Positions 2,063-50,446 are shown, numbered from the stretch's first letter. The stretch is 64,000 nt of DNA from an uncultured Gammaproteobacteria bacterium (GCA_964525495.1 CAZGHS010000005.1:12599-76598); one strand, 5' to 3'. Made by a program: numbers and translations. The notes: a model not told the origin generated them from the letters alone.

Positions 2063-5000
2063 ATGAAAATGAAAAAATTACATATAGGAATACTTGTCAC
2101 TGTCTTGGTTGTGCTTATTGGGGTTCCGGTAACGGTTTCCGTCGGCGTGGCAGGATTAAACAAAGTAAACAAGCTAGCAAGTTCAAAAACTGCTAAATCA
2201 ACAACAGGTTTAGAAGCAGTTCCTCTCAATGGCCAAGTACTACAAGCAGCAACTGAGGCAACAGGTGCAAGCGTCATAAACTTTAATGCGCCAGCTATCT
2301 TTAACGAACCAACCAGATTCAATGCAGATATCGATGCAAGTGATAACAATCTCACATTGGGTGAAGGAGAATTAACAGCATCAAACGTAATTTACTCAAT
2401 TCAAGGCATCAATGGTATTACCGTAACAGGTGGACAAAATGCAGTAATATCCTTTACGGGTTTAACTGGAATTCTTGCGGGCGACGGAATAGAGCTCACA
2501 ACAGGCTCAACACCAACATTAACCAACACAGGTGTCACGTCGTTTCAGGGCGAGTCCGGAGCTATCACACTAGATGAAGGAGACGGGATCGAAATAAGTG
2601 GAACAGAAATTTCAAACGATGACCCCGGTACTGCTCAAGACATTTTCAAAATAATTGCAGTATCTGGACAAAATGATATTGAAGCTGACGAAAACAATGA
2701 CACATTAACATTCGTGGCTGGATCAAACATTACCCTCACAACAAATGACTCTGGTGACGCTCTAACAATTTCTTCTGCCGCAAGTGCTGTTAGCGGCTGG
2801 GAAGATGACGGCACTGATGTTAGGCTCTCAACTATCACAGATAATGTTGGTATCGGAACTGCAACGCCCGGTTCCAAGTTGCATGTAGTTGGTACGACAA
2901 CCATTTCATCTACCTTAACTCTGGGTGGAAGCATGGTTTTAGGAAGCGATACCGTCAATGATTTAACGGGGGACGGCCTTGCAGTGAGCGGCAGCGCATT
3001 AACTGTTAATTTAACAACATCAGGCAGCGCTGGTTCTACATCGTCAAATTCGGGATTAGAGGTCTCTACAGCTGGATTAACCATGATTAAAGGCTGTGCA
3101 GATGGAGAGCTTCTCAAGTGGGACAATACCGCAAATCTATGGGAATGTGCAACTGATGATGGTGGAACAACAGGCATAATCAATGTACAGGAAGGCGACG
3201 TAACCGTAAGTGCAAGTGCAGGTACGTTAGATTTCCTTGGAAATGATTTTGCATTAACAGAATCACCTGCCGGCGAGATCAACGTTGCCATTGATTACAC
3301 AAACTCAAATATTACCCGCACAAATCAAAATGAAACCATCACAGGGACTTGGACATTTAGTAATGTAATTACGGCAAATGGCGGATTGACTATTGCGGGA
3401 GGTCAATCATTAACGCTGGGCAGTGACGCGGTAACTGACCTTACAGGAACAGGCATAACAGTTTCAGGAGGCTCACTACAAACAACTTTAGGCACATCAG
3501 TTGACTTAGCTTCTGCAGAAGTAACGGGCACGCTCCCTGTTGGAAATGGCGGTACAGGTGCTACTTCGTATACTGCAGGATCAGTAGTATTTTCGAATGG
3601 AACTATTCTCACACAAGATAATACAAATTTATTTTGGGACGATACAAACAACCGTCTTGGTATAGGAGATAACTCGCCAAACTCTGCTTTAACAATTGGT
3701 GCAAGTGATGCCTTCCAAGTCAACTCATCCGGAGCAGTCGCAGCCGCAACAGGCATTTCTTCCTCAGGTAATTTAAACTTTACTGGATCAGGCACATACA
3801 CGCTTGCAAACATTGCGAGCGGGGCGTCCTTTAGCGGAAGCAGAATAGTTGGAGTATCTCAAACAGGTGTGTTAACCACCGTGGCTGATGGAAGTGACGA
3901 TCAAGTATTAACAACTGACGGCGCAGGCGTATATACCTGGAAAGACATTGGTTCAATCCTTGAACCGACAAATGCCTTTATTAACAACGGAAATTCATTT
4001 GCTGCTTCTGCGACATTAGGTACAAACGATACAAATAGTTTAGCACTTGAGACAGACGGGACGACTCGAATTACAATTCTCGCCACTGGCAATACAGGTA
4101 TCGGCGATGCATCTCCCGCGTCATTGTTTACAGTAGGCTCAGGAGATTTATTTCAAGTAAACTCATCAGGAGCAATCGCAGCAGCAACAGGAGTAACCTC
4201 ATCTGGAACGATTACATTTACGGGATTAGGCTCTGGTTCTGGGTCAACACTATGTATAGACGGGTCAAATCAGGTTGTAACCTGTGCAGTCTCTCCAGGA
4301 GATATAACAGCAGTGGGAGATATTACGTCTGGCGCAGCATTCGACGGTACTCAAGGCAATACATTGTATTTCGAAGGAACATCAATAGATGCGAACGAAA
4401 TTGCACTATCAGGTGCTGATGCAACGGTAGATCGGACAATTACACTTCCAGATCTTTCAGGCACAGTTGCTCTCTTAGAAAATTCACAAACATTTTCTGG
4501 AGCTAAAACATTTACTGCTGCCATGACAATTGACGGAAATTTAGCCATCAATAGCTCAAGTACAACTATCGGTGACTCTGGCTCTGACAGCTTAACAATC
4601 AATGCGACAATCTTAGTTGGTTCACCATTAGTATTCGAAGGTTCGACGGCTGACGGCAACGAGACAACCCTAACAGTAACTGACCCCACTGCAGATCGAA
4701 CTATTACTATTCCAGACCTAACAGGTACCGTTGCACTGCTTGAAAATGCACAAACATTCTCTGGAGCGAAAACCTTCAGCGCTGGACTCATCGTTTCTGC
4801 AAGTGGAGCATCAATAACAGGAGGAATAGATAATAACTCTGGAGGCATCACAGAGGCAGGAGCAATATCCGGAGTTACTACTTTGTCAGCATCTTCTACA
4901 GTAACGCTCACTGGTTTAGGTTCAGGGACCGGATCCTATTTGTGCTTGGACGGGTCAAACAATGTAGTTACATGTTCTGGAACAACGGGAGATATAACCG

Positions 5001-8000
5001 CAGTCGGTGATGTAACATCAGGCGCTGCATTTACGCAGACAGCAGGAAATGACGGAAACAATATATATTTTGAAGGATCAAGTGCTGACGGAAACGAAAT
5101 AGCCTTAACAGCAGCAGATCCAGGATCTGACTTAACGGTTACATTACCAGCGATCACGGGAACGTTAGCTTCTCTCGCAGGATCACAAACATTTACAGGA
5201 GCAAAAACATTCAATGCTACAACCACATTTGACGGTGCAATCGCTGCCAATACAGATATAGATCTCACATTTGCAGCGGCAGAAAACATGACTCTCACAA
5301 ACTCTTCTGCTTCTACAGATCAATTATCATTATCTATCACCGGTGTTACGACAGACGGAGTTGACGCGTTTGCAATTGCTTATACTCAAGCAGACGACGC
5401 TGATTCAACAGACACAAATAGTGCAGTAAATATAGCGTTAACATCATCCTCAGGCGATGCTGATGCCCTATACGGCCTCCAGTTTGCAGACTTTACCAGT
5501 GGCTCTGCAACTGAAACAGCGCTCCGATTCGGAACGGGTTTTGACAATATCCTCGAAATCGAAGGATCTACAGCAGATGCAAACGAAACATTTCTTACAT
5601 TCACAGACCCAACGTCAGATCGCACAGTTACATTCCCAGATGCATCAGGAACAGTGTGTTTGACATCTGGTAACTGTGCAGGTGTCGGTGGGGTAGGAAC
5701 AATTACAGCAGTCGGTGACATCACATCAGGGGCGGCTTTTACGCAGACCGCAGGCAACGATGGGAACAATATATACTTCGAAGGTTCAAGTGCTGACGGA
5801 AACGAAATAGCGTTAACAGCAGCAGATCCAGGGTCTGACTTAACGGTTACACTACCAGCAATAACAGGAACACTCGCGTCTTTGGCAGGTACTCAAACAT
5901 TTACAGGCGCAAAAACATTCAACGCAACAACTACATTCGACGGTGCCATAGCAGCTAATACAGATATAGACCTAACCTTTGCTGCTGCAGAGAATATGAC
6001 GTTAACAAATACGTCCGCCTCCTCAGATCAACTCTCCCTTTCAGTGACAGGAGTAACCACCGATGGTGTCGATGCCTTTGCAATTGCCTATACTCAGGCC
6101 GACGACGCTGATTCTACAGATACCAACAGTGCAATCAACATTGCTCTAACATCTTCATCGGGAGACGCCGACGTTTTCTATGGACTTCAGTTTGCAGATT
6201 TTACAGCAGGAACAGCAACTGAAACAGCGTTCAGAATCGGAACCGGATTCGATAATGTTTTAGAAATCGAAGGCAGCACGGCAGATGGCAATGAAACCTC
6301 CGTAGCGTTTGCTGACCCTACAGCCGATCGAACGGTCACATTCCCGGATTCATCTGGTACAGTTTGTCTCTCATCGGGAAACTGCGCTGGCGGCGCAGGA
6401 GGATCAAAATGGACAGATAGTGGAACGCTAACATATCTAACTGACTCAACTGACAGCATAACAATTGGTTCGACATCTGAATTGGCAAAATTAGCTGTCG
6501 ATGGCGACGCAGACGAAATTCAACTATTGATCCAAGGTAACGGCACCCAAACGTCAAGCCTATTAGTACTCGAAACCTCCGCTGGAACAGATCAATTAAC
6601 AGTATCGAATGCCGGAGCATTAGGGTTAGAAGGTGCAATCTCAGATATTACTGGTGCTACAGTTGAAATAAACGACGATCTTCAAGTAACTGGCAACGAC
6701 ATCTTAGATTCTGGTTCAACATCCCGAGTCACACTTGGATCTAATACTATATTAACAAACACAACAACAACGTTATCTGGAACAACAACGCTTACCGCAA
6801 GTTCGCTTGCAACACTTACTACAGCAGCCACACTAGATATGACTGCAACAACAACGCTAAACTGTACAGATTGTATTAACTTTGACGACCTATCAGATTC
6901 GCTATCACTTGATGCAGGTACAACAATAGCCTTAGGGACTAATACATTAACGCTTAACGCAAGCGGTACAGGGGATGTAATATTCCAGGACAATGGAACA
7001 CCGGTCTTGACTTTCAACGACTCAGGCAATACTGTCTGGTCACTTCCAGCAGGAAACAATATACAAATTGACGGAGCCACAGCAGATTCAACTACAACTA
7101 CCGGCGTTGTTGATGTCGACGTAGATTCCGCAACAGACAATAACATCGGTATGTCGATTGATTATCAAGATACAAATACCGGAGCTTCACAAACAAAATA
7201 CGCCCTGAGAACAGATATAACCATTGATACAAATGGAACCGGTAACGACACGGTGTATGGAAACTACATCTCATTTACTCAGGACGACGCGGCAGCCACC
7301 GCATATGGCTTATATGTAACAGGTGAGGATCGCAACTATTTCTCGGGAAATGTTGGAATCGGAGACAGCTCACCTACAGCTGCATTAACAGTAGGTTCGG
7401 GTGATGCATTCCAAGTAAACTCATCAGGTGCTGTTGCAGCTGCAACAGGGATAACTTCTTCAGGAACAATTACATTCTCAGGGTTGGGCACCGGTGTAGT
7501 GCAGTCCAACGGCTCAGGAGTTCTTTCCTCTGGTGCGCTTGATCTAGCAGGAGGCGCAAGCTATATAACTGGTGTCCTTCCTCTTGGAAATGGTGGCACT
7601 GGATTCTCTACGTATACTCAGGGAGACTTATTATATGCATCTGCAGCAAATACACTTTCAAAACTAGCTGTCGGTGGAAACACTACTGTCTTAACAGTAG
7701 CAGGAGGAGTACCTACATGGGCTACTGCTACTGTCGCGTTTAATAACATTTCAGGCGGAACCAATACAACTGCGGCAATGGTTGTCGGAACAGGATCATC
7801 CCTTAACTTTACAGGCTCAGGAACAATTAATGCCTCTACTCTATTGGGATCAACATGGGCGTCTCCAGGGACAATCGGATCAACTGCACCAAATACTGGT
7901 GCATTCACTTCACTTACAACATCAGGAAATACATCACTAACTACCGGAGCTGGCAACGACACAACAATTGGCAACGCCACCGGGACTTTCGAGTTAGTTT

Positions 8001-11000
8001 CGGACGCATTAGATATTTCAACAACAGGCGCGCTTTCAGGTGCAACGGGCTTATCGTCCTCTGGAAATCTGACCTTCACAGGTTCTGGAACATATACGCT
8101 CGCAAACATTGCGTCTGGTGCGTCTTTCTCAAACAATCGACTTGTCCAAACAACAAGTGCAGGTGTGCTTTCAACCATCCCAGATGGAAGCACTCCAAAC
8201 CAGGTACTAATCACCGACAGCAATGGCAATTTCTCTTGGACAAGCGCAGCTGGGGTTATTGCTCCAGACTCACTAGATTTCACAGAATTCAGTGACTCGA
8301 TGTCTCTCGATGCTTCAACTTCAATTGCTTTTGACGCTGCAGAAGTACTTACGCTAAACGCAGCAACTGTGGATACCACCACCACAGGCGGTGTACTAGA
8401 CATGAATATTGATGCAGGGAACGCAGCAGTGATTGGATTAAATGTAGACTTTGCGCAATCCAACGGTGCAACAGCAGCAACAGACGCAGTCGCACAAAGG
8501 CTTACATTATCCGCAAATGATGCTGACGGCGACATGTTTGGATTACAAATAGTAGGAGCTGCAACAACGAACGCAGCTGCAGGAAGTTACGAGGCAGCCC
8601 TCTCAATAGACAATGTTGAAGATACTGTGGCATCCATGACCGACGCAATCCTCATAACATCATCAGGAGTAAATAATGGTGTAACAGACGCCATCGATAT
8701 ATCCGCAGCAAACATTAACAACGCTATTAATGCAGGTGCAAATTTCATACTTATGGATGGAATTCGCATATTCGAAGGTACAACAGGCACCATAACAATC
8801 GAAGATACTGCAGGTAACGACCTCATGACTATCGCTGATGGCGGAACAGTCGGTAATGCATCCATAACAGGCACGCTTGCTGTGTTAGGATCTACGATTG
8901 GACTCGACAGTGATGCTGATGCAGATAATTTGATAGGAACAGCAGCAGCAGGTGGCGCTGCAGCTTCAAATCTTTATTGGGGGAATAGGCTTCTCTGTGA
9001 TGCCACACAAGTAAACTGTGGATGGTCCGCAGTAGGTGGCAATGCTCCATGGACGACAACATCAAATGTGGTAAATCTTAATACTGCAACAGATAACGTA
9101 ACTGTAGGATCTGCAACAAATTTAGCAAAACTCGCAGTTGATGGCGACACAGACGAAATACAGTTACTAATCCAAGGCAACGGAACACAGACGGCAAATC
9201 TTGTAGTATTCGAAACATCAGCAGGGACGGATCAACTGACGCTATCAAACGCGGGTGCCTTAGCAATCGAAGGTGCAATTTCCGACATAAGTGGGACAGT
9301 TTTAGAAGTTAACGACGATCTGAAAGTAACAGGCAACGATATTATCGACTCAGGTGACGTAACACGAATATCATTAGGAGCAACCACAACACTTACTAAT
9401 TCCGCTACGACACTATCTGGAACAACGACCCTTACGGCTACCTCATTGGCCACGTTTTCTACAGCTGCAACACTCGACATGACATCTACAACAACACTTA
9501 ACTGTACTGACTGTGTTAATTTCGACGACATGTCGGACTCCCTTGCACTCGACGCGTCAACCTCAATAGCCTTCGATGCCGCTGAAGTATTAACACTCGA
9601 TGCAGCATCAACAGATACTACTACTACTGGTGGCGTGCTAGACTTCAACATTGACGCAGGCAATGCGGCTGTCCTAGGTTTGAATATCGATTTTGCTCAG
9701 TCCAACGGTGCAACAGCAGCAACAGACGCAGTAGCACAAAGGCTAACCTTATCAGCAAATGACGCAGACGGAGACATGTTTGGTTTACAAATCATCGGCG
9801 CCGCAACAGCAAATGCTGCAGCTGGTTCTTACGAAGCTGCAATATCGATAGATAATGCTGAAGACACTGCAGCTTCCATGACAGATGCAATTTTAATCAC
9901 CTCATCAGGCGTAAATAATGGTGTAACCGACGCGATAGATGTCTCTGCTGCAAACATAAACAACGCAATCAACGTAGGTGCAAACTTCATATCAATGGAC
10001 GGGGTGAGAATGTTTGAAGGTTCAACGGGAACACTTACTTTTGAAGACACGTCCGGAAATGATTTAATGACGATTGTTGATAATGGCACAAATGGAAATG
10101 TAACGATCACAAACAATCTCTCAGTAACAGGCACAATCACTGCTAACACAGATGAAACAATCAATGGACTAGATATCAACGCAGGTGCAATATCTGACGC
10201 AACGAGCCTAGCTATCTCTTCAGCAGCAAGCACGGCAATTGCACTAACCAGAAGTTCGGCTGGACAATGGATGTCTTTCAATGACGGCACAGATGCCTGG
10301 GGTTTATATAACACAGCTGGCTCGCCGGAAGGAGTGCTCGCAGCCAATACAGGTGCACTTTCAATGGATACCACTAACGGCACTTTGTATGTCAAAACTG
10401 ACGATGGTGACAATACTGGCTGGGTAAATCTCGCAACCGGAGGAAGTTCTCCATGGCAAACAACATCTAACGTTACCAATCAAGTCACTTCAACAGACGA
10501 TGTGACAGTCGGCTCAGCTGTTGATTTAGCAAAACTGGGTGTCGATGGAGATTCAGACGAAATTCAATTCTTAGTACAAGGCAACGGAACACAAACAGCT
10601 GGCTTACTAGTATTAGAAACCTCAGCAGGAACAGATCAATTTACGGTATCTAATGCTGGTGCAGTGGGTATCGAAGGAGCAATCTCAGATATTACCGGAA
10701 CAGTTGTTGAAGTAAATGATGATTTGAAAGTAACAGGCAACGACATCATTGATTCAGGTGACACAACACGTATTTCACTTGGCGCAACAACAACCTTAAC
10801 AAATACAACAACAACGCTATCAGGCACAACAACCTTGACTGCATCATCTTTAGCAACTCTGACAACTGCGGCAACGCTTAGTATGGCTTCAACAACAACA
10901 TTAAACTGTGGTGATTGTATCGACTTTGATGATATGAAAGACTCGCTATCAATAGATGCTGCAACAGATATTAACCTTGGAGCTAACGCGCTTACAATCG

Positions 11001-12943
11001 ATATGGATTCGACGGGCGATTTCTCAATTAGAGATGGTACAACAGATATTATGGCATTCACAGATAGTGGTGCTGTAAGTATCACTCCAACATCCGGACA
11101 GAATCTCACCGTAACAGCGGCAGGTGCAGGAACAGTAAATGTTACAACTGCAACAGGATCACAAACATACACATCTTCAGTTGTATCAGGAACAACAACA
11201 ACTTCTGCATTTATATTCGATGCAACTGCAATTACAACAGGTACAGGTATGTACGTAACAACGGATAGTATTACGCAAGGAAATCTAATGGATATTTCAA
11301 CAACGGGCAATACGCTAACATCAGGAAATGTATTAAATCTAAGTTCCACATCAACAGCATTAACCTCAGGAAGACTAGCATCACTTGATTGGTCTCCAGG
11401 ATCAACAACAACTGCTACGGGCGATTTATTCCGTATTAATATCGGCTCAAACGGAAACGCAGCAAATCTATTCAATGTAACAGATAATACGTCGTCATTA
11501 TTCAGTGTGGCAGAAAATGGTATTACTTCAGCTGTACCACACTCATTCACAGCTGCTGGAGATGTTGCTATTGCCTACGACCTACAATTCACCAATCAAA
11601 CAGCATCATACATCAAATCCAATGCACCACTATACATAGAAGCAGGCGAAGCTTTTGAAAGCAACGATATTACAATTCGCTCATTCAATAGTGGTGGAAT
11701 AATTCTTGAAGGATCAGGTAACACATCTGTAAAGGGATCAGATGTAGTCATTTCAAGCGATGGAACATTGGATTCAACAAATATCGGCGGAACAGGTTTA
11801 TTGGCGTACGGAGCAATCTGCGCTGATGATTCTCTCGACAATGCTGACGATTGTATTGATGCTGCACGTTCAGCTGGAACTGTATACGGTATTGCTTCAA
11901 GTTTCGCAATTGACGACGTTGCTGAAAACTTCCCAACGCTTGACTCTTCTATCGAAGCTGCAGATATAGTTGCACTCGACTATCAAGAACCACTAGATAC
12001 TCCAGTAGCAAGCGACGCTGCACAGGCATATGAAACAGAGTTCGTAAAGAAAGCCACTTTATCTGATAATCAAAAGGTACTTGGTGCAATCTCCGGCAAA
12101 CCAGGTGTGTTACTCGGAGGATGGAGTCAAAAGCGTGATCCAAGATCTGTACAAGAAGTAGCCGTAGGTTTATCTGGGCGTATACCGATAAAAGTGACCT
12201 CAGTAAATGGCCCAATTGAGCCAGGAGATTATATTGCGTTGTCAAACACGCCAGGTGTCGGAGCAAAAGCAAATGATAAGGGGTATGTAGTTGGTATGGC
12301 GCTTGGTCGATACGATAACGCCGATTCATCACACATAGGCTCGGTCTTAGTTTTCTTACAAAGAATGTATTACAATCCAATCACATCTGAATTAGCAGGA
12401 GAAAACGAGTTAACTCCTGAGTCATTATCTTCTACAACAATGCCAAACCTCTTAGTTTCAGGAACTGCAGAATTTAGCGACGTAAAAGTAACAGGAGAGA
12501 TATTAGCTGGTAACCTCTCGATCACAGGTCTTGCAGCAGGGGGCGGAGCAGATGTGTCAACTCTAACTGGCCCATTACGAATACAACCAGACGCAGGAAA
12601 CAATGTTGAAATAATGGGCGGCAAAGTAATTATCGATACAGAGGGAAATATCTATGCGGATGAAGGAACCTTAACCGCAAAAACAATTTCCGCCGAAAAG
12701 ATCAATGTATCTGGACAGGGGAGCGATGCCTCCATTGGTTCAGCAACAATTGCAGCATGGCAAACACAAGTTACAATAGATTCATCCGCTGTAACAGAAA
12801 ACTCACAAATATTTGTAACTGCTAAATCCCGTTCACGACAACCACTCGCTGTAACAGCAACGGTTTCAGGTGAATCATTTACAGTTGAGATACCAGAGGA
12901 ACAAGAAGAAGAACTCGTATTCAGCTGGTGGATAATAAACTAA
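2063..12943 (+). CDS. Giant (3,626 aa) Thr/Gly/Ser/Ala-rich repetitive surface protein, fibre/adhesin-like, with an N-terminal signal anchor
   Basis: Single uninterrupted ORF. N-terminal hydrophobic segment ILVTVLVVLIGVPVTVSVGVAGL. Extreme T/G/S/A/D/N bias with many nested internal repeats, including recurring GNGGTG and TFTG/SGAKTF motifs. Non-repetitive roughly 390-aa C-terminal domain. Reverse-strand ORFs across it are low-complexity artefacts. Confidence 0.85.
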   Translation: MKMKKLHIGILVTVLVVLIGVPVTVSVGVAGLNKVNKLASSKTAKSTTGLEAVPLNGQVLQAATEATGASVINFNAPAIFNEPTRFNADIDASDNNLTLGEGELTASNVIYSIQGINGITVTGGQNAVISFTGLTGILAGDGIELTTGSTPTLTNTGVTSFQGESGAITLDEGDGIEISGTEISNDDPGTAQDIFKIIAVSGQNDIEADENNDTLTFVAGSNITLTTNDSGDALTISSAASAVSGWEDDGTDVRLSTITDNVGIGTATPGSKLHVVGTTTISSTLTLGGSMVLGSDTVNDLTGDGLAVSGSALTVNLTTSGSAGSTSSNSGLEVSTAGLTMIKGCADGELLKWDNTANLWECATDDGGTTGIINVQEGDVTVSASAGTLDFLGNDFALTESPAGEINVAIDYTNSNITRTNQNETITGTWTFSNVITANGGLTIAGGQSLTLGSDAVTDLTGTGITVSGGSLQTTLGTSVDLASAEVTGTLPVGNGGTGATSYTAGSVVFSNGTILTQDNTNLFWDDTNNRLGIGDNSPNSALTIGASDAFQVNSSGAVAAATGISSSGNLNFTGSGTYTLANIASGASFSGSRIVGVSQTGVLTTVADGSDDQVLTTDGAGVYTWKDIGSILEPTNAFINNGNSFAASATLGTNDTNSLALETDGTTRITILATGNTGIGDASPASLFTVGSGDLFQVNSSGAIAAATGVTSSGTITFTGLGSGSGSTLCIDGSNQVVTCAVSPGDITAVGDITSGAAFDGTQGNTLYFEGTSIDANEIALSGADATVDRTITLPDLSGTVALLENSQTFSGAKTFTAAMTIDGNLAINSSSTTIGDSGSDSLTINATILVGSPLVFEGSTADGNETTLTVTDPTADRTITIPDLTGTVALLENAQTFSGAKTFSAGLIVSASGASITGGIDNNSGGITEAGAISGVTTLSASSTVTLTGLGSGTGSYLCLDGSNNVVTCSGTTGDITAVGDVTSGAAFTQTAGNDGNNIYFEGSSADGNEIALTAADPGSDLTVTLPAITGTLASLAGSQTFTGAKTFNATTTFDGAIAANTDIDLTFAAAENMTLTNSSASTDQLSLSITGVTTDGVDAFAIAYTQADDADSTDTNSAVNIALTSSSGDADALYGLQFADFTSGSATETALRFGTGFDNILEIEGSTADANETFLTFTDPTSDRTVTFPDASGTVCLTSGNCAGVGGVGTITAVGDITSGAAFTQTAGNDGNNIYFEGSSADGNEIALTAADPGSDLTVTLPAITGTLASLAGTQTFTGAKTFNATTTFDGAIAANTDIDLTFAAAENMTLTNTSASSDQLSLSVTGVTTDGVDAFAIAYTQADDADSTDTNSAINIALTSSSGDADVFYGLQFADFTAGTATETAFRIGTGFDNVLEIEGSTADGNETSVAFADPTADRTVTFPDSSGTVCLSSGNCAGGAGGSKWTDSGTLTYLTDSTDSITIGSTSELAKLAVDGDADEIQLLIQGNGTQTSSLLVLETSAGTDQLTVSNAGALGLEGAISDITGATVEINDDLQVTGNDILDSGSTSRVTLGSNTILTNTTTTLSGTTTLTASSLATLTTAATLDMTATTTLNCTDCINFDDLSDSLSLDAGTTIALGTNTLTLNASGTGDVIFQDNGTPVLTFNDSGNTVWSLPAGNNIQIDGATADSTTTTGVVDVDVDSATDNNIGMSIDYQDTNTGASQTKYALRTDITIDTNGTGNDTVYGNYISFTQDDAAATAYGLYVTGEDRNYFSGNVGIGDSSPTAALTVGSGDAFQVNSSGAVAAATGITSSGTITFSGLGTGVVQSNGSGVLSSGALDLAGGASYITGVLPLGNGGTGFSTYTQGDLLYASAANTLSKLAVGGNTTVLTVAGGVPTWATATVAFNNISGGTNTTAAMVVGTGSSLNFTGSGTINASTLLGSTWASPGTIGSTAPNTGAFTSLTTSGNTSLTTGAGNDTTIGNATGTFELVSDALDISTTGALSGATGLSSSGNLTFTGSGTYTLANIASGASFSNNRLVQTTSAGVLSTIPDGSTPNQVLITDSNGNFSWTSAAGVIAPDSLDFTEFSDSMSLDASTSIAFDAAEVLTLNAATVDTTTTGGVLDMNIDAGNAAVIGLNVDFAQSNGATAATDAVAQRLTLSANDADGDMFGLQIVGAATTNAAAGSYEAALSIDNVEDTVASMTDAILITSSGVNNGVTDAIDISAANINNAINAGANFILMDGIRIFEGTTGTITIEDTAGNDLMTIADGGTVGNASITGTLAVLGSTIGLDSDADADNLIGTAAAGGAAASNLYWGNRLLCDATQVNCGWSAVGGNAPWTTTSNVVNLNTATDNVTVGSATNLAKLAVDGDTDEIQLLIQGNGTQTANLVVFETSAGTDQLTLSNAGALAIEGAISDISGTVLEVNDDLKVTGNDIIDSGDVTRISLGATTTLTNSATTLSGTTTLTATSLATFSTAATLDMTSTTTLNCTDCVNFDDMSDSLALDASTSIAFDAAEVLTLDAASTDTTTTGGVLDFNIDAGNAAVLGLNIDFAQSNGATAATDAVAQRLTLSANDADGDMFGLQIIGAATANAAAGSYEAAISIDNAEDTAASMTDAILITSSGVNNGVTDAIDVSAANINNAINVGANFISMDGVRMFEGSTGTLTFEDTSGNDLMTIVDNGTNGNVTITNNLSVTGTITANTDETINGLDINAGAISDATSLAISSAASTAIALTRSSAGQWMSFNDGTDAWGLYNTAGSPEGVLAANTGALSMDTTNGTLYVKTDDGDNTGWVNLATGGSSPWQTTSNVTNQVTSTDDVTVGSAVDLAKLGVDGDSDEIQFLVQGNGTQTAGLLVLETSAGTDQFTVSNAGAVGIEGAISDITGTVVEVNDDLKVTGNDIIDSGDTTRISLGATTTLTNTTTTLSGTTTLTASSLATLTTAATLSMASTTTLNCGDCIDFDDMKDSLSIDAATDINLGANALTIDMDSTGDFSIRDGTTDIMAFTDSGAVSITPTSGQNLTVTAAGAGTVNVTTATGSQTYTSSVVSGTTTTSAFIFDATAITTGTGMYVTTDSITQGNLMDISTTGNTLTSGNVLNLSSTSTALTSGRLASLDWSPGSTTTATGDLFRINIGSNGNAANLFNVTDNTSSLFSVAENGITSAVPHSFTAAGDVAIAYDLQFTNQTASYIKSNAPLYIEAGEAFESNDITIRSFNSGGIILEGSGNTSVKGSDVVISSDGTLDSTNIGGTGLLAYGAICADDSLDNADDCIDAARSAGTVYGIASSFAIDDVAENFPTLDSSIEAADIVALDYQEPLDTPVASDAAQAYETEFVKKATLSDNQKVLGAISGKPGVLLGGWSQKRDPRSVQEVAVGLSGRIPIKVTSVNGPIEPGDYIALSNTPGVGAKANDKGYVVGMALGRYDNADSSHIGSVLVFLQRMYYNPITSELAGENELTPESLSSTTMPNLLVSGTAEFSDVKVTGEILAGNLSITGLAAGGGADVSTLTGPLRIQPDAGNNVEIMGGKVIIDTEGNIYADEGTLTAKTISAEKINVSGQGSDASIGSATIAAWQTQVTIDSSAVTENSQIFVTAKSRSRQPLAVTATVSGESFTVEIPEEQEEELVFSWWIIN
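4994..6409 (+). repeat. Near-identical tandem direct repeat (2 x about 708 nt = 2 x 236 aa) inside the giant gene; a more diverged third copy lies upstream (about 4301-4993)
   Basis: Protein segments starting ITAVGDVTSGAAFTQTAGNDGNNIYFEGSSADGNEIALTAADPGSDLTVTLPAITG... (from nt 4994) and ITAVGDITSGAAFTQTAGNDGNNIYFEGSSADGNEIALTAADPGSDLTVTLPAITG... (from nt 5702) are roughly 95% identical over 236 aa. The nucleotide copies are also highly similar. Confidence 0.85.
6482..10970 (+). repeat. Dispersed intragenic module repeats in the giant gene: module M1 (LAKLAVDGD..DEIQLLIQGNGTQT...NCTDC.NFDD) at about 6482, 9122 and 10526; module M2 (SIAFDAAEVLTL...GVNNGVTDAID...ITGTL) at about 8317 and 9568
   Basis: Translated segments of 150-190 aa recur with roughly 70-90% identity at these offsets. 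Spacing between M1 copies is 2640 nt and 1404 nt. Confidence 0.8.
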
Positions 12944-17813: not shown

Positions 17814-20800
17814 ATGAACAAACACGTCAAAAAACTCGCATACACATTTTCGTCACTACTTTTATTAAGCAGTTTAATCGGTAGTGATAATTCTATTTTT
17901 GATCCAAAATCCGCATTCGCAAACCCGCCAGTCAACTTTACAAACGAAATTCTTACGACAAATCTTACAGAACCCACAGGATTAACATTCACACCTGACG
18001 GTCGAATGTTATTTATAGAGCGAGCAGGAACGATTAGAGTAGTTGCTGCGGGTGGAACAACACCTAACACAACACCATTTCACCAAATAACAAACATCAA
18101 CACGAGCGACGGAGAAAGAGGATTAGTGGGAATTGCGGTAGATCCAAATTTCACTTCAAACAATTATTATTATGTTTTTTACACAGCAAACTCACCTTTG
18201 CGAGATCGAGTATCTCGATTCACCGCAAATGGGGATACCACAGTATCCGGCAGTGAAGTAGTAATTTGGCAGGAACCAACACAAGCCGGCCTTTGGCATC
18301 ATGGTGGAACAATTGCATTTGGTCCAGACGGAAAACTATATATCTCAACAGGAGATGGATTTGATTCTGGTTCAGGATCAAATCATGTTTCACAAAGACT
18401 AGATAGCGTAAGAGGAAAAATACTTCGCATTAATTCCGACGGAACAATTCCTTCGGACAATCCATTTAATGACGGTGGAGGATCAAACTTTGACGAAATA
18501 TGGGCGCGCGGTTTACGCAATCCATTTAGATTCTCATTTGATTCTACAAACGGCACTATGTATATAGGTGATGTAGGTGGAAACTCAACGGTAAGCTCGA
18601 TAGAAGAAGTAAACAGGGGTGCCGTTGGAGCTAATTTCGGTTGGCCAATTTGCGAAGGAACCTGTTCCACTTCGGGTATGACCAATCCTATCTACACATA
18701 TAATCACGGAGGACGAGATGCGTCAGTAACAGGTGGTTTTGTGTATCGAGGTTCGCTATTCCCCACAGAATATCAGGGAACATATTTTTATGGTGACTAC
18801 GTACGCAATTGGGTAAGATATCTCACATTTAATACCAATGGAACAGTGAGTGGATCAACCAACTTCGAACCAACAAACGGAACAGAAGACGGACCATATG
18901 GTGAGATCGTAGATATAAAAATGGGACCAGACGGCAATATATATTACGTAGATTACGGTACAACCTGGGAAGGTCAAAGCAATCCAGGAAAAATCAGAAG
19001 AATAAAATATACTGGAACAACAAATCAGCCACCAATTATCACTTCAGCGACTGCAAATCCTTCAAACGGGCCAGGTCCAATACTAGTAACAGATTTTTCA
19101 GTTGCTGCATCCGATCCAGAAAATAATACATTAAGCTATTTGTGGAATTTTGGAGACGGAAACACTTCTTCACAGCAGAGCCCAAGCCATACATATACAG
19201 AGCCAGGAGAATACATAGCTCGAGTAACGGTTTCAGACGGTACAAATCAAACTCTTTCAAATCCCATTAATATTACTGTCGGTAATAGACCAGTAGTATC
19301 AATTGCCTCGCCGACAATAAATCAATCGTTTAGAGGTGGAGATAGTATTTCATTTAGTGGGTCAGCAACTGATCCAGATGAGGACCTTCCGTTATCAGCG
19401 TATTCTTGGAGAGTAATATTCAACCACGAATCACACACGCATCCAGCCGCCGGCCCTATCGAAAACACGACGTCAGGTTCCTACACAATTCCTACAACAG
19501 GTCACGATTTTTCTGGGAACACAAGTTATGACATTTTACTTACGGTAACAGACAGTACGGGATTACAGGGAACCGCTTCTGTCAGAATTAATCCTGAAAA
19601 AGTTAATCTTACATTCAACACTTCACCAACAGGACTCGGCCTTAACTTCGACGAGCAGACTAATATAACAACATCATTTGTGAGAGATACTTTAATCAAC
19701 TTTCAACACACTGTCGAAGCCCCAGTAACACAGCTGCTCGCAGGTAATACGTATACATTCCAATCATGGTCAGATAGTGGTGCAGCTCAGCATATAATCA
19801 CTGCCCCTGCTACAAGTCAAACATACACTGCAAACTATCAGTTAACAGCAAGTCCTACCCCGACTGCTGCACCTACGGCTACACCAGTGCCAACGGCAAC
19901 ACCAACTGGAACCCCATCGCCAGCTCCTACTGCGATACCCACCACAGGTACAAGTCTACAATTTGATGGGGGAGACATGGTATCTGGTACGAACGTTCCT
20001 TTGCTTACGCAGTTTACCTATGAAGCATGGATAAAACGAACAGCTGACAACGGGACTTACCAAACATTTCTATCTGACGCAAATACAAACTATAACGCAG
20101 CCATGGTCACGCTGTTTGTAGACGGAGGAAATAGTGATTGCGGAAGCTCACCAACTGATCAGATCGCATATTTTCAATTGCAATCAGGGGGCAGTTCGAC
20201 TCAATGTTCAGGGGTAACGGCCACGCTTAATCAGTGGTACCACGTAGCTGTAACGCGAGATGCAGCAGGAACACGCAGGGTATTTATCGACGGAACACTA
20301 AGATCGACAAATACAAGTACAGTAGCTCCAGCAGATAGCACAGGTCTCATGACATTAGGGCGAGCTGGTTCGAGCAGTGACGAGTACTTCACTGGACGGA
20401 TTGATGATGTACGGGTTTCAAATACAGCCAGATACACTACAAACTTTACACCATCAGCTATCAGTGGGTCAGATGCAAACACTATCTTCGCATGGAATAT
20501 CAACGAAGGATCAGGACAGACACTTGCTGACCTATCAAGCAACAATCGTAACGGAACACTAGGCAGTAACACAAATGTTGAAGCAACTGATCCTGTTTGG
20601 TCAACAGATAGCCCCTTGGGCGGAGCAGCTCCTAGCCCAACACCAACAGGCACTCCAGCACCGACGGCAACCCCTATTTCTACAGCAACTCCTGCTCCAA
20701 CTGCGACGCCAATAATAACTCCAACACCGATACCAACGGCAGCACCAACCGGAACCCCTATACCTACAGCTACACCAATTCCTACTCCTACCGCCACTCC

Positions 20801-21575
20801 GGCAATAACACCTACCCCAGTTCCCACAGCAACACCTACGGCTGTCCCAACAGCGACACCAATTCCTACCTCGACCCCGACATCAACTCCAGTTCCTACG
20901 GGAACAACGCTTAACTTTGCCGGGGACGATGTAGTACAGACAGTAAATATTCCTTTAGCAACACAATATACATTTGAAGTATGGGTAAAGCGTTCGGCTG
21001 ACAGTGGAGGATACGAAACATTTGTATCCGATGCAAACAGCGCATACAATCGCGCGATGGTCACGCTATTTATTGACGGAGGAAACAATGACTGTACAGG
21101 GGTATCTGACCAATTCGCGTTTTATGAGTCAAGAGCGAACGGATCGAGCACTCAGTGTTCGGGAGTAACAGCTTCATTGAATCAGTGGTTCCATATTGCC
21201 GTAACACGAGATGCTGCAGGCACTCGACGATTCTTTGTTGACGGCACTTTGCGGACAACACAGACAGGAACGGCAACGCCAACTGACAGTGCTGGAGTAC
21301 TTACTTTCGGTCGTGCTGGTGATTCTAGTTCGGAATATTTCAGTGGAAGAATAGACGACGTGCGTGTAGTAAGCAACGCAGTCTATACTACAAACTTCAC
21401 AAGGCCAACAGCACCGCTCACTACCGTGACAGGAACAATTGGACTCTGGAACATTACAGCAGGAAGTGGACAAACTGTAGCAGACACTTCTGGCAACAAT
21501 CGCAATGGACGATTAGGTACTTCAAATTCCGCTGATTCACGTGATCCAAGTTGGGTGTCAGATAATCCATATTAA
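17814..21575 (+). CDS. Secreted multidomain protein: PQQ-dependent sugar dehydrogenase-like (GSDH/YliI-type) beta-propeller + 2 PKD-like domains + Thr/Pro linkers + 2 LamG domains
   Basis: Signal peptide. The GSDH-family motifs (LT.P.G..F.PDGR, GLVGIA.DPNF, WHHGG.I.FGPDGKLYI..GDG, LRGKILRIN.DG.IP.DNPF, GLRNPFRF) are all present. PKD signature WNFGDGNTS...HTY.EPGEY...TVSDG. Two LamG units with W.KR.AD, W.H.AVTRD and GRIDDVRV. Confidence 0.8.
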   Translation: MNKHVKKLAYTFSSLLLLSSLIGSDNSIFDPKSAFANPPVNFTNEILTTNLTEPTGLTFTPDGRMLFIERAGTIRVVAAGGTTPNTTPFHQITNINTSDGERGLVGIAVDPNFTSNNYYYVFYTANSPLRDRVSRFTANGDTTVSGSEVVIWQEPTQAGLWHHGGTIAFGPDGKLYISTGDGFDSGSGSNHVSQRLDSVRGKILRINSDGTIPSDNPFNDGGGSNFDEIWARGLRNPFRFSFDSTNGTMYIGDVGGNSTVSSIEEVNRGAVGANFGWPICEGTCSTSGMTNPIYTYNHGGRDASVTGGFVYRGSLFPTEYQGTYFYGDYVRNWVRYLTFNTNGTVSGSTNFEPTNGTEDGPYGEIVDIKMGPDGNIYYVDYGTTWEGQSNPGKIRRIKYTGTTNQPPIITSATANPSNGPGPILVTDFSVAASDPENNTLSYLWNFGDGNTSSQQSPSHTYTEPGEYIARVTVSDGTNQTLSNPINITVGNRPVVSIASPTINQSFRGGDSISFSGSATDPDEDLPLSAYSWRVIFNHESHTHPAAGPIENTTSGSYTIPTTGHDFSGNTSYDILLTVTDSTGLQGTASVRINPEKVNLTFNTSPTGLGLNFDEQTNITTSFVRDTLINFQHTVEAPVTQLLAGNTYTFQSWSDSGAAQHIITAPATSQTYTANYQLTASPTPTAAPTATPVPTATPTGTPSPAPTAIPTTGTSLQFDGGDMVSGTNVPLLTQFTYEAWIKRTADNGTYQTFLSDANTNYNAAMVTLFVDGGNSDCGSSPTDQIAYFQLQSGGSSTQCSGVTATLNQWYHVAVTRDAAGTRRVFIDGTLRSTNTSTVAPADSTGLMTLGRAGSSSDEYFTGRIDDVRVSNTARYTTNFTPSAISGSDANTIFAWNINEGSGQTLADLSSNNRNGTLGSNTNVEATDPVWSTDSPLGGAAPSPTPTGTPAPTATPISTATPAPTATPIITPTPIPTAAPTGTPIPTATPIPTPTATPAITPTPVPTATPTAVPTATPIPTSTPTSTPVPTGTTLNFAGDDVVQTVNIPLATQYTFEVWVKRSADSGGYETFVSDANSAYNRAMVTLFIDGGNNDCTGVSDQFAFYESRANGSSTQCSGVTASLNQWFHIAVTRDAAGTRRFFVDGTLRTTQTGTATPTDSAGVLTFGRAGDSSSEYFSGRIDDVRVVSNAVYTTNFTRPTAPLTTVTGTIGLWNITAGSGQTVADTSGNNRNGRLGTSNSADSRDPSWVSDNPY
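19950..21572 (+). repeat. Intragenic duplication of a LamG domain (about 19950-20610 and 20905-21572) separated by a Thr/Pro/Ala linker (about 20625-20900)
   Basis: Both copies share TQ[FY]T[FY]E.W.KR.AD.G.Y.TF.SDAN..YN.AMVTLF.DGGN.DC...STQCSGVTA.LNQW[YF]H.AVTRDAAGTRR.F.DGTLR. The linker is almost pure PT/AT repeats (TPAPTATPISTATPAPTATPIITPTPIPTAAPTGTPIPTATPIPTPTATP...). Confidence 0.8.
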
Positions 21576-21598
21576 AATATAATAAAAAAGAGGTGCAT

Positions 21599-24500
21599 AT
21601 GTTACTAGGTGAAAGATATTTTAAATTAGGCACACTATCTCTTTTCATAGTGCTCATCTTAGGGATGAGTTTTTTTTATACATCGGCTCATGCTGATTCA
21701 AACATATATCAGATAACTGCCAGCGCAAATGATGTGAATCAAGACGGTAATACACTTGATATTACAAGCGCAAACATGTGGTTAGGTACTGGTGCTAGTA
21801 CGTCAAGTTCTTATACTGGATTGCGGTTTACAAACATAAATATACCTAAAGGAGCAACAATCAACTCGGCAAAGCTTCAGGTCTTTTCACCTTCATCAAG
21901 TTGGATATCGATGACTTTTGATTTCGCAGCTGAAGCAGCAGATAACAGTGCAATATTCTCAACAACAAGCAAACCTTCACAACGAACAGTAACAAACACA
22001 AAAATACGGCACTCAAGCAATAACTCATGGTCAGCAAATACGAATTATACGCTTGACGAAATAAACACAGTGGTACAAGAAGTCATCAACAGGCCGGGAT
22101 GGACCAGTGGTAACAGCCTATCACTTGTCCTAAAAGGAGCAGGAAGTTCCTATGGAAGAAAAAGTATCCGTGCATACAACGGTACTCCAGCCAACGCGCC
22201 AAAACTTTTAGTAACATTTTCCGTAGCTGGTACACCGACCCCTGCACCAACGAGCACGCCGACCGCAACACCCACAGCAACTCCAGTACCAACGACTACC
22301 CCTACTGTTGCACCAACAGCTACCCCCACTATATCTCCTACAGCAACATCGACGCCTATACCAACTGCAACTCCCACCTCGCAACCAAGTAATGTTGCCT
22401 ATTACAATATAAATACTTCTACCTCAACTAGCGCAGGATACGATGCCGTTTCGTGGTCACAAGGATACCCCATCACTGTAGATAAATTTGGAAAATATAT
22501 AGTACCTATACAACGTCATGGATTCAGCAGCGAAAACTTTGCAGTCAGTAATGATGCCGGAGCAACATGGATAGAGCTAGACGGCTCAGGTATCCTCAAT
22601 AGATCATCTATTGCATACGATAGTATAAATGACACGCTCCAAGTAGTAACAACTGCAAACGCAGTGGCTTATAGTAAATATTCAATAGTTCGTGATGGCA
22701 ATAACAACATTACGAGTCTAGCACTTGATGGAATAATGAATATAGAAACTGGGGCAGGTTGTACTGCAATGGATATTAGAAATCCTATAGCACTATGGAA
22801 AGATGACGGAGCAAACGGACAGGTGGTTGCGTTCTGGTCAGTTAGTAAAACATGTTCAGGATCAAGCATAGTAGAAACACGTGCCGCTATGCGAACACTT
22901 TCAAACTCGGCCGCAGATAGAACAGCATCAAATTGGAAAGCATTAAACGGAGTCTCAAGTGCACCAGGATCTGTCGGTCCTGCGCTTGTTGCATACAATA
23001 AAATATATGGAATTAATACAGCGTATGACCGTCCATTTCAACACTCCGCAATGATCCAAGGCGGAGGCGGAGTTCATAGCAATGATATTTACTATTTCAA
23101 CATAGATCAAAACGATACTCACGGATTCCAAAGGTTAACGTGGAATCCTGCATTAAATGATTGGTCAGGTTCATGGACATCGAGGGCAGTATTTGGAGGA
23201 AATGTAGGAGATAATCTTGGATATAATTTAAAGAAAGAGCTATTAAGTAAACCTGTTTATGCTTCAAATAGCAACAGAGTATATGTAGGAATATCTAGAT
23301 GGTTAACAGGCGGGGCTGGTGACTCTCAATCACTATTCTATGTAGATGACAGTGATATCGTTATCGAAGCAGGAAACGTATACTCTGCTAATGGTACCGC
23401 GTTCCTCTATCCGACATTTGATCTTATGTACGATCAAGTAACAGGTTTAGTAAATTTCTTCTATCTCACCACAGGAGTAAATCAGAACGGTCATGTATAT
23501 TACAAATCATATGACGGTTCGAACTTCTCTACAGCAAAACCATTTTTTACAGCAGCCGGACAAACGGTAGATATTCCAATCGTCTATCAGTCGAGAATAG
23601 ATAATAAAGCAGTCTTGTTCTTCAGAAAAAACAAAACAAGTGATCCAAACACACCTCCTCATGAAATATTTTTTGGCTACGCAAAGCTTGATACTCCTGT
23701 TCCAAACCCAACGCCTACAGCCACTCCTACAGTCGCCCCGACCGCAACTCCAGTACCCACGTCCACTCCTACTGTCGCGCCAACAGCTACGCCCACACCG
23801 ACTAGCACCCCAACACCTACAGCAACACCAACAACCGCTCCAACCAACCCGCCTGGGGAAACAGTAAAAGGGTCATTTGAAATAGGACAGGGAGGCTCCG
23901 ATGTGATTCCGCATCAAATAGTTCGCACTCAAGATGACAAAGTATATACGTTTGGATATGCTGGCCAATACCAACCAGTGCTCAAGGCATATTGGACAAA
24001 TGGTACAGGTATACCAACACAGACTAGTCATTTCAGTGGTTCAACACAAGTTACCGACAGCTCAAACTTAATCTCTGTAGATGCAGTCTATGATGGAAGC
24101 GCTATTATCCACGTCATAACAAACACACAGGGTGGAATTACCAAAGATTATCCATTTGACACAACAACAAATACTTTCAGGTCACCTCAAACTGTTGCTA
24201 CGAACACTAAAACAGTCAGTGGAGATTACGTAGGATCAAGCGGAGTATCAGCAATGTTCGACACGGCTGGAGATCTGCACATCGCATATTGGACGAATGA
24301 TAACTATGTCAAATACGGAAAATATCAGTATAGCAACAATACAAACACGCTAACGCAAGTTGAAGGTCCAACCACAGTAGATGCCGACGTAAACGCAAAC
24401 CATCCAAGTCTCGCAGTGTCTCCACTAGACAACTCAATTTCAGTAGCTTGGATATCACAGAGTGGAACACCTCGCATTTTATACCGCGAAAAGACAGTAA

Positions 24501-49276: not shown

Positions 49277-50446
49277 TTATTTAGCAGGCACTAGTCTGTA
49301 AATCTTATCATCCTTATCCTTAACACTCCCACGTCCATCTCGATTACTTGACGAGAAATAAATATTGCCATCTGGTCCTGTCACAACGTCACGCACTCGT
49401 CCAACATCCACGCCTGCGAGTTTGTTATGCGACAATACGTTTGTTCCATCTGTATTCAACACTGCCCGGTAAATTCCTTGTCCGCGTAATGCACCATAAA
49501 AGAAATTATTCTCAAATTGAGGAAATACTTTTCCTGTATAAAAACTTCCAGATCCAGGAGCAATCGCAGGTGTATACAAAACTTGTGGATCCATCATGCC
49601 ATCTCGGCGTTTATCATGAGACACAACAGGCCAACCATAATTTGCAGCCCGCTCAATCATATTCACTTCGTCACCTCCGCCTGGTCCGTCACCTCCAGAA
49701 GGCCCGTGCTCAGTCTCCCACATAGTTTTCGTCACTGGATGCCAATCAATTCCTTGAGGATTACGATGACCATACGACCAGACATACGAATTAGGAAATG
49801 GATTATCGCTCGGAATCGACCCATCGCTATTCATACGCAATATTTTCCCAGCCAGCGAGGTTTTATCCTGTGCCAATTCTTTTTGAGACGCATCACCAGT
49901 AGTCATATATAGTTTTCCATCCGGTCCAAACTTCAGACGGCTCCCCGCATGAACTTGCGCTGCAGGCACGCCTTCAATCAAAGTTTTATCCACACGCAAT
50001 TTGTCACCTTCATCAACAGCCCGCACTACTCGATCAGCGCCACGTCCACTCGCATAGGTATACGCAATATACACATATTTATTTGAAGCATAATTCGGAT
50101 CCAAAGTCATTCCTAGTAATCCATCTTCAGACCGAGTCGAGACATCAAAGGTAATCATCGGCTCTTTACGCACAACACCTTTTTCTACTACTTTCACTGC
50201 ACCACTTCGTTCAGTTACCAAAACCCGATCCGCAGAAGTGAACACGATACTCCATGGTACAAACAAGGAATCTGCATACACCTCTACTTTGTATCCCACC
50301 GCAACAGGACTCTCTTCGCTCGTATTCGTAGGCGAAGTAGTTCCATTGGATGAATTCTGAGGTAATGCAGTAGATTGCTGAGAAGTACACGCAGTTAACA
50401 GGAGAACACTCAGTAAAATAACAGTCAAAGATGTAACTTTATGCAT
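49277..50446 (-). CDS. PQQ-dependent sugar dehydrogenase-like (glucose/sorbosone dehydrogenase, YliI-type beta-propeller) lipoprotein
   Basis: Lipobox LLTAC. GSDH family motifs (LGMTLDPNY, G.RLKFGPDGKLYMTTGD, GKILRMNSDGSIPSDNPF, ANYGWP). Confidence 0.75.
   Translation of the reverse strand: MHKVTSLTVILLSVLLLTACTSQQSTALPQNSSNGTTSPTNTSEESPVAVGYKVEVYADSLFVPWSIVFTSADRVLVTERSGAVKVVEKGVVRKEPMITFDVSTRSEDGLLGMTLDPNYASNKYVYIAYTYASGRGADRVVRAVDEGDKLRVDKTLIEGVPAAQVHAGSRLKFGPDGKLYMTTGDASQKELAQDKTSLAGKILRMNSDGSIPSDNPFPNSYVWSYGHRNPQGIDWHPVTKTMWETEHGPSGGDGPGGGDEVNMIERAANYGWPVVSHDKRRDGMMDPQVLYTPAIAPGSGSFYTGKVFPQFENNFFYGALRGQGIYRAVLNTDGTNVLSHNKLAGVDVGRVRDVVTGPDGNIYFSSSNRDGRGSVKDKDDKIYRLVPAK

Follow-up and report, generated by a model that had tools for sequence, protein, structure and literature searches.

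A giant repeat protein of a Patescibacteria-type bacterium: a probable cell-surface fibre built from phage-fibre-like modules

The stretch of DNA considered here (64,000 nucleotides, CAZGHS010000005.1:12599-76598 of GCA_964525495.1, catalogued under an uncultured Gammaproteobacteria bacterium; the whole stretch is called the window) carries a giant open reading frame (ORF) of 3,626 amino acids (aa) at positions 2063..12943 of the + strand, on which all modules described below also lie. The frame is uninterrupted over 10.9 kb, and its product is rich in Thr, Ala, Gly and Ser and identical to a database protein (P0035) from an 85,185-bp NCBI contig. An initial annotation of the window had marked the interval 6482-10970 as a nested array of repeats reminiscent of phage fibres; this interval is the middle of the single ORF. 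The sole strongly hydrophobic segment in a Kyte-Doolittle scan spans aa 3-33 (2069..2161) and is a candidate N-terminal signal-anchor or signal peptide, whereas the remainder of the protein is acidic. In the putative fibre body, Asp and Glu account for 6-14% of the residues versus 1-2.5% for Lys and Arg, the latter figure being 5.7% in the C-terminal region. The paired cysteines noticed at the outset extend to the whole protein, in which 20 of 20 cysteines are arranged in ten close pairs with spacings of 3-17 residues. Such close pairs fit local disulfide staples in an exported protein. The pairs are often situated at module junctions, e.g., NCTDC and CLDGSNNVVTC.

The internal repeats were analysed by splitting the protein into 120-aa fragments and comparing each with the whole protein by BLASTP. 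This self-alignment, proposed as a check in the initial annotation, gave 130 off-diagonal self-matches, and none in ten global and ten local-composition-preserving shuffles. Therefore, the Thr/Ala/Gly/Ser-rich composition is not the source of the repeat signal, and the two modules first recognized by eye, M1 and M2, are real. M1 is present in three copies, M1a (aa 1446-1638; 6398..6976), M1b (aa 2326-2519; 9038..9619) and M1c (aa 2794-2986; 10442..11020), with a protein identity of 66-82% and best E values of 1e-48 to 8e-51. At the DNA level, the repeat search places the beginnings of the copies at 6388, 9028 and 10432, and the start-to-start distances of 2640 and 1404 nucleotides (nt) agree exactly with those initially reported. 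According to the module hidden Markov models (HMMs), M1 is composed of an 86-aa head, which in M1a contains LAKLAVDGD.DEIQLLIQGNGTQT, and a 104-aa Thr-rich shaft ending in the motif NC.DC..FDD. The motif scan locates this end at aa 1600 (NCTDCINFDD), 2480 (NCTDCVNFDD) and 2948 (NCGDCIDFDD). M2 has two full copies with 80-91% identity (best E to 8e-67), M2a at aa 2069-2290 (core 2088-2266; 8267..8932), delimited by the fragment BLASTP and the HMM, and M2b at aa 2483-2704 (core 2502-2682; 9509..10174). Three short M2-like copies were found by the module HMMs at aa 1068-1173, 1304-1409 and 1659-1751, the last of which (7037..7315) was matched by the iterated HMM at E 2e-19.

The chain contains further repeats. 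A micro-repeat of 44 aa occurs six times within aa 757-1436 (aa 757-804, 854-892, 994-1037, 1157-1200, 1230-1273 and 1393-1436; HMM E 4e-26 to 5e-29), in the zone 4331..6370. This zone includes a 236-aa tandem duplication, E1/E2, absent from the initial list (aa 961-1198 and 1199-1436; 4943..6370; 85-94% aa identity by segment, best E to 3e-69; DNA spacing 708 nt), each copy of which consists of two micro-repeats and a short M2-like half-domain. The B module is also found twice. Copy 1 (aa 462-635; 3446..3967) includes LPVGNGGTG, NLFWDD..NRLGIG, an IGD.SP..L.VGSGD.FQVNSSG core and QVLTTDGAGVYTW, and copy 2 (aa 1749-2068; 7307..8266) includes LPLGNGGTG (nt 7577) and QVLITDSNGNFSW (nt 8201). In the motif scan, LP.GNGGTG is located at aa 491 and 1839, and QVL.TD..G...W at aa 614 and 2047. 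The protein is thus a chain of at least five module types: the B module with its LPxGNGGTG motif, the 44-aa micro-repeat, M1, M2 and a C-terminal domain.

Several details of the repeat map differ from the first description. All of its motifs are found in the protein, but one copy each of LP.GNGGTG and QVL.TD lies upstream of the interval 6482-10970. The FEG..ADGNE micro-repeat exists, but all of its copies lie upstream of that interval as well. The limits of the interval do not coincide with the modules: roughly the first 85 nt of M1a and the last 50 nt of M1c fall outside it. The sequences between the modules, taken as unique Thr-rich stretches, are mostly not unique: in the stretch from M1a to M2a, a short M2-like copy is found together with the N-terminal LP.GNGGTG module in its second copy. 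Thr is most abundant within the M1 modules, where it makes up 20-21% of the residues.

The divergence between the copies indicates the age of the duplications. E1 and E2 share 88% of their amino acids overall, yet the compared DNA segments are 72-84% identical. For the repeat copies as a whole, the identity is 68-89% at the protein level and 65-84% at the DNA level, and exact DNA matches between copies extend over 13-32 nt at most. In the Nei-Gojobori comparison of the copies (4943-11020), the proportion of synonymous differences (pS) is 0.66-0.76, which is saturated, and that of nonsynonymous differences (pN) is 0.09-0.21. A syntenic relative, L018, from a Woesebacteria metagenome-assembled genome (MAG), has one E module and one full M2 versus two of each in the window protein, and both window copies of E and of M2 align better to each other than to the single copy of L018; the M1-like heads of L018 are located elsewhere in its protein. 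The saturated synonymous sites and low pN, together with the single copies in L018, show that the internal duplications are lineage-specific, old and under purifying selection. Codon sharing at same-aa positions was compared with random draws from the codon usage of the gene, and it equals the random expectation in three pairs and is slightly above it in two. The copies do not avoid shared codons, a pattern that would have pointed to selection against recombination.

Repeats are a known source of misassembly, and the map might be ascribed to collapsed or chimeric repeats in a metagenome contig. An assembler, however, would hardly be confused by copies that share 65-84% of their DNA sequence and no exact match longer than 13-32 nt; the frame stays open for 10.9 kb, and the identical protein is on record from the 85-kb contig. 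The age of the duplications excludes such an artefact, to which we give practically no credence, and counts also against recent shuffling. Across 26 genomic loci, mostly of Patescibacteria and including some MAGs labelled Proteobacteria or Planctomycetes, the same modules recur in varying number and order. This distribution supports module shuffling, in line with the domain shuffling first proposed.

The phage-fibre likeness of the protein was searched for in families, structures and genomes. The whole protein and five segments of it gave no usable Pfam, NCBIfam or PHROGs family, and the PDB sequence search with the whole protein gave no convincing chain. A CopC match in the latter search (E 6e-4) was treated as compositional, with low alignment accuracy over a Thr/Ala-rich stretch. 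The individual modules are more informative. The micro-repeat has at least 600 matched stretches in IMG/VR, at least 581 of them confirmed by tblastn, with up to 79% identity. Among isolated phages, it is present in Pelagibacter phages Kolga (tail fiber), Mosig (putative peptidase S74) and HTVC008M (13 places) and in two cyanophages, and it also matches a gene annotated as baseplate among the Pelagibacter phages. The B module (LP.GNGGTG/NLFWDD) has 24 IMG/VR relatives with up to 74% identity, and eight carrier proteins were tested, four of which matched tail-fibre or minor-tail families of PHROG. The M1 head has two viral relatives. One of these contigs (L068, IMGVR_UViG_3300032132_000001; 395 kb) could represent either a jumbo phage or a small genome of a cell that was classified wrongly. 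In a tblastn search of 50,697 isolated phage genomes, the micro-repeat alone was matched, and M1, M2 and the B module were not.

The conserved M2 domain, about 180 aa long, has the signature TDAIDxSxxxIxNAxNxGxN and near-invariant acidic and polar residues, D144 and S146 among them. An exhaustive search of its profile against 1.84 billion cluster representatives gave only 350 proteins at E ≤ 1e-3, of which 120 reached E ≤ 1e-30. Giant proteins are frequent among them, the largest with 6,172 aa, and as many as 13 stretches are matched in one protein (10 domain copies in the local HMM count). M2 is found in 17 viral contigs, where it lies near the N-terminus of proteins of 585-954 aa, usually at aa 95-280. 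In four of the contigs (L001, L002, L010 and L012), the M2 gene is located directly or closely downstream of the major head gene, which by our reading is the usual place of a head fibre or decoration protein; the M2 proteins of these four contigs gave no convincing Pfam or PHROG family. In L002, a reverse transcriptase of the diversity-generating retroelement (DGR) type adjoins a tail protein gene. Among the M2-carrying bacterial relatives, two end in Phage_depo_C, and P0007 ends in Peptidase_S74 (E 3e-10). As judged by these matches, M2 is a rare domain without a family name that occurs both in giant surface proteins of bacteria and in head-proximal genes of phages. For Patescibacteria, the literature searches brought up no earlier account of these modules.

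The C-terminal domain starts at D3285 (DVAENFPT...) and extends to about aa 3470 (11915..12472). It recurs in many relatives, in some of them twice, and a profile of 14 relatives (A3) was built and searched against the PDB. The profile matches the chains of gp12, the pre-neck appendage of Bacillus phage phi29 (6qz9_A, E 1.3e-4; 3gqh_A, 4e-4; 3suc_A, 2e-3), with the next match at E 1.4. It aligns with gp12 residues 685-743, and the alignment begins at the first residue of the separately crystallised C-terminal fragment (3gqh, start DFAEYFES). In the full gp12 chain, the site lies between S691 and D692, followed by E695, and the uncleaved crystal chain 3suc has Gln in the place of that Glu. D3285 and E3288 (D46 and E49 of A3) are invariant in the 14 sequences and aligned to the gp12 Asp and Glu. 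We infer a self-cleavage site just before D3285, with the domain starting as D3285-V-A-E3288. The C-terminal domain of gp12 is an intramolecular chaperone, which is needed for the folding of the trimer and cut off afterwards, as in the K1F endosialidase and T5 pb1 (PMC3357383; PMC4690869). Such chaperone domains have been described for trimeric beta-structured phage fibres, from which they are removed after folding (PMC4690869; PMC3357383). The domain of the window protein probably belongs to the gp12-type intramolecular chaperones (Pfam Peptidase_G2 IMC domain); the membership is only probable because the first third alone matches and the threshold of the Pfam model is not reached.

The chaperone-like domain is followed by a tail (aa 3513-3626, 114 aa; 12599..12940), which has 27% identity (pairwise E 8e-5) to the segment after Peptidase_S74 in P0007; Peptidase_S74 (PF13884) itself was not matched in the window protein by the Pfam scans. 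One relative of the chaperone-like domain, P0168 (527 aa, from a JGI metagenome), has precomputed GerE and sigma-70 region 4 helix-turn-helix matches, a further case of a DNA-binding domain linked to one of fibre type. By sequence similarity, each of the five module types is related to proteins encoded on phage contigs or to structural proteins of phages. The likeness to phage fibres, at first an impression from motifs, is supported as homology through the micro-repeat, the LP.GNGGTG module, M2 and the C-terminus. Of the family search recommended at the outset, the phage relatives of the modules were obtained, but no Pfam or NCBIfam family for the whole protein.

Such phage relatives raise the question of whether the gene itself is viral and its product a head or tail fibre, either from a prophage or from phage DNA that was sorted into the genome bin. 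In favour, relatives of every module type are found in viral contigs, and the chaperone domain at the C-terminus is of the phage type. The gene neighbourhood, however, is cellular. Directly upstream, the giant gene is preceded by the gene for ATP synthase beta and by a small ORF presumed to encode the epsilon subunit, and no capsid, portal, terminase, tail or integrase match was found among the annotated ORFs of the 64-kb window. The giant gene is the first of five consecutive large proteins at 2063-44513 (3,626, 1,587, 1,253, 1,376 and 866 aa), whose N-termini are all hydrophobic or signal-like, and LamG, PKD, GSDH and Calx-beta domains occur among the four downstream ones. The pairing of the giant fibre with the LamG giant is conserved in the Woesebacteria MAG. 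Moreover, the N-terminus is a predicted membrane helix and not a virion-attachment domain, and the viral M2 carriers, with 585-954 aa and M2 fixed near the N-terminus, have another architecture. A viral origin of this gene copy is thus regarded as very unlikely.

Beyond the large proteins come seven glycosyltransferase genes of the PMT_2 type, together with a gene for a GH8 glycoside hydrolase; housekeeping genes, an ATP-binding cassette (ABC) transporter and a helicase follow. The PMT_2 transferases may, as a guess, O-glycosylate Thr/Ser-rich surface proteins. The 1,376-aa protein at 21593-25723, which has a hydrophobic N-terminus, matches no Pfam family, only DNRLRE weakly and below threshold, and it contains no M1, M2 or micro-repeat module. 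GSDH (glucose/sorbosone dehydrogenase) beta-propellers are present in two proteins (17814-21575 and 49277-50446), one of which, the 1,253-aa surface protein, is fused with PKD and LamG domains. The closest genomic relatives of the locus are MAGs of Woesebacteria, Microgenomates, Uhrbacteria and Kerfeldbacteria, and the Patescibacteria-type label of the window rests on these.

The structure of one module, M2b, was predicted with AlphaFold2. A run with 18 sequences was poor (predicted local distance difference test, pLDDT, 64.6; predicted template modelling score, pTM, 0.46) and was replaced by a run with 60 diverse domain copies, which gave a confident chain (pLDDT 84.7, pTM 0.69). Confident coordinates without intrachain sheets are what would be expected of one chain taken from an intertwined trimer. 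Compared with the PDB structures, the better model gave eight weak matches, all of them below significance and all of them triple-stranded beta-helix chains of HylP. The M2 profile found nothing among the PDB sequences, and a Foldseek search of BFVD gave no meaningful match. The beta-helical shaft first proposed is not directly seen in the model: disorder is not predicted for M2, yet DSSP assigns no strands to the chain, and no PDB match is significant.

Two other explanations concern the function and the fold of the protein. The first is that the protein is mainly an enzyme, with M2 as a catalytic triple-beta-helix like HylP, degrading the capsule or wall of a host or prey. HylP is the sole PDB resemblance of M2, two M2-carrying relatives end in the phage depolymerase C-terminal domain, and the near-invariant acidic and polar residues of M2 could be catalytic. 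However, the HylP matches lack significance, no glycosidase or lyase family was matched in the Pfam and NCBIfam scans, and the conserved Asn, Gly and Asp may equally be structural turn residues. A mainly enzymatic role, although compatible with a surface fibre, is considered improbable. The second is a monomeric repetitive adhesin or surface-layer-type protein, a single-chain beta-solenoid or beads on a string, in which the phage likeness would concern the sequence and not the trimeric fold. Many giant bacterial adhesins are monomeric, the neighbouring LamG/PKD proteins are of the beads-on-a-string type, and the monomer chain of M2 was predicted confidently. A compact single-chain solenoid, on the other hand, should give intrachain strands by DSSP, of which the M2 model has none; the gp12-type chaperone with its conserved Asp and Glu serves trimeric fibres in the described cases, and relatives have Peptidase_S74. 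The monomeric form is on balance rather unlikely.

The best explanation, to which we assign a probability of about 0.65, is a giant homotrimeric cell-surface attachment fibre of a Patescibacteria-type bacterium, made from phage-fibre modules. Its location at the cell surface is proposed because of the single N-terminal hydrophobic helix and the cellular gene neighbourhood. In the proposed mechanism, the chain would be exported and held at the cell by its N-terminus. The C-terminal chaperone domain would bring three chains into register, leading to an intertwined, beta-structured homotrimeric shaft, in which M2 would contribute a segment of the triple-beta-helix type and the closely spaced Cys pairs would act as short disulfide staples. 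A cut before D3285 would then remove the chaperone. By our own scaling from T4 long tail fibres, the mature fibre would be about 0.1-0.2 µm long. It would project from the cell and bind another cell or a surface glycan, as phage fibres do, and the repeated modules would set its length and perhaps the number of binding sites. The surface-fibre reading fits the published views that the membrane proteomes of candidate phyla radiation (CPR) bacteria are enriched in giant proteins linked to a fibrous cell surface (PMC8080830) and that giant bacterial proteins often serve adhesion (bioRxiv 10.1101/2023.11.21.568195).

Several observations weigh against the trimeric attachment fibre. First, the C-terminal region as a single sequence has no PDB match, and aa 3020-3626 alone give no Pfam match at E up to 10. 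The gp12 alignment, at E ~1e-4, comprises about 60 of the 212 profile positions. Second, the better M2b model contains one short helix and zero strands by DSSP, and the HylP matches (E 4.7-9.3, template modelling score 0.2-0.37) share only 14-20% identity. The AlphaFold2 models are of monomers only, and the trimer is inferred, not modelled. Third, M1 and the 255 aa before the chaperone domain are without structural assignment. The attachment function, finally, is probable by analogy only, and the N-terminal segment may instead act as a signal peptide that is removed, which would set the protein free and leave it without an anchor.

The proposed fibre can be compared with several known systems. 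The closest in its C-terminal part is phi29 gp12 (PDB 3GQ7, 3GQH, 3SUC, 6QZ9), which has the same D-x-A-E motif at the start of the C-terminal domain, with the aligned Asp and Glu invariant. In contrast, gp12 is a virion protein of 854 aa with a single-chain beta-helix body and enzymatic function, whereas the window protein starts with a predicted membrane helix and continues for a further 150 aa after the chaperone-like domain. The Peptidase_S74 fibres and spikes (K1F endosialidase, T5 pb1) and the tail fibres of Pelagibacter phages and cyanophages are likewise modular and rich in Thr, Gly and Ser. The 44-aa micro-repeat and the LPxGNGGTG module are common to such tail fibres and the window protein by homology, and Peptidase_S74 is present in the relative P0007. 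The window protein is, however, 3-5 times longer than most phage fibres, is encoded in a cellular genome, is predicted to be anchored N-terminally and has no Peptidase_S74. HylP, the hyaluronate lyase of streptococcal phages (PDB 6WV2, 2YVV), has similarly extended chains without intrachain sheets and is the only PDB protein that the M2 model resembles, although not significantly and with no sequence relation found.

Among the cellular proteins, trimeric autotransporter adhesins such as YadA and Hia form long modular trimeric surface fibres with repeats and a C-terminal trimerisation element. Their anchor is an uncleaved C-terminal outer-membrane barrel, whereas that of the window protein is predicted at the N-terminus, and the YadA and Hep_Hag families were not matched in the window protein by Pfam or NCBIfam. 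These adhesins are mentioned in PMC3357383. The giant membrane proteins of Vampirococcus lugosii are also very large and membrane-located, with a proposed fibrous surface for host attachment (PMC8080830). They are described through WD40, PKD, integrin, fibronectin and DUF11 domains, unlike the window modules, which are of phage-fibre type and without Pfam families. With its 3,626 aa and N-terminal helix, the window protein resembles the giant CPR surface proteins, its taxon being taken from the MAGs of the nearest relatives.

A different N-terminal arrangement is present in no fewer than 14 relatives of giant size, the longest with 6,172 aa, in which a MerR-type helix-turn-helix is followed by one hydrophobic helix at about aa 100-200 and then by the fibre. 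They include L018:2606-13696, P0008, P0020, P0040, P0045, P0050, P0058, P0108 and P0162, and the MerR domain was confirmed by Pfam on P0008. The window protein has no MerR domain and begins directly at the hydrophobic helix. A loose parallel to the MerR-fused relatives, in that a DNA-binding domain is tethered to a fibre-type part, is MyRF, a membrane-bound transcription factor of eukaryotes that has triple-beta-helix and chaperone domains of the phage type (PMC8326128). A bolder version of the attachment-fibre reading, which is speculative and as a whole unlikely, is that Patescibacteria took over the phage receptor-binding toolkit, i.e., the fibre modules, the triple-beta-helix-type M2 and the self-cleaving chaperone, for a membrane-anchored host-recognition fibre of about 0.1-0.2 µm, and that the MerR-fused relatives are a contact sensor wired to transcription. 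Such a structure would be, in effect, a tail fibre mounted on a cell.

No current view is overturned by these results; precedents exist both for fibrous giant proteins on the surface of these bacteria and for cellular proteins with phage-like fibre domains. What is new, if the preferred explanation holds, is that a protein resembling phage fibres has become a giant fibre anchored to the cell and contains a rare unnamed domain, M2. Patescibacteria are believed to lead a life attached to other cells, and little is known of their host recognition. The gene described here suggests that some Patescibacteria may display fibres composed of phage host-recognition parts, including a self-chaperone that predicts both a trimer and a cleavage site.

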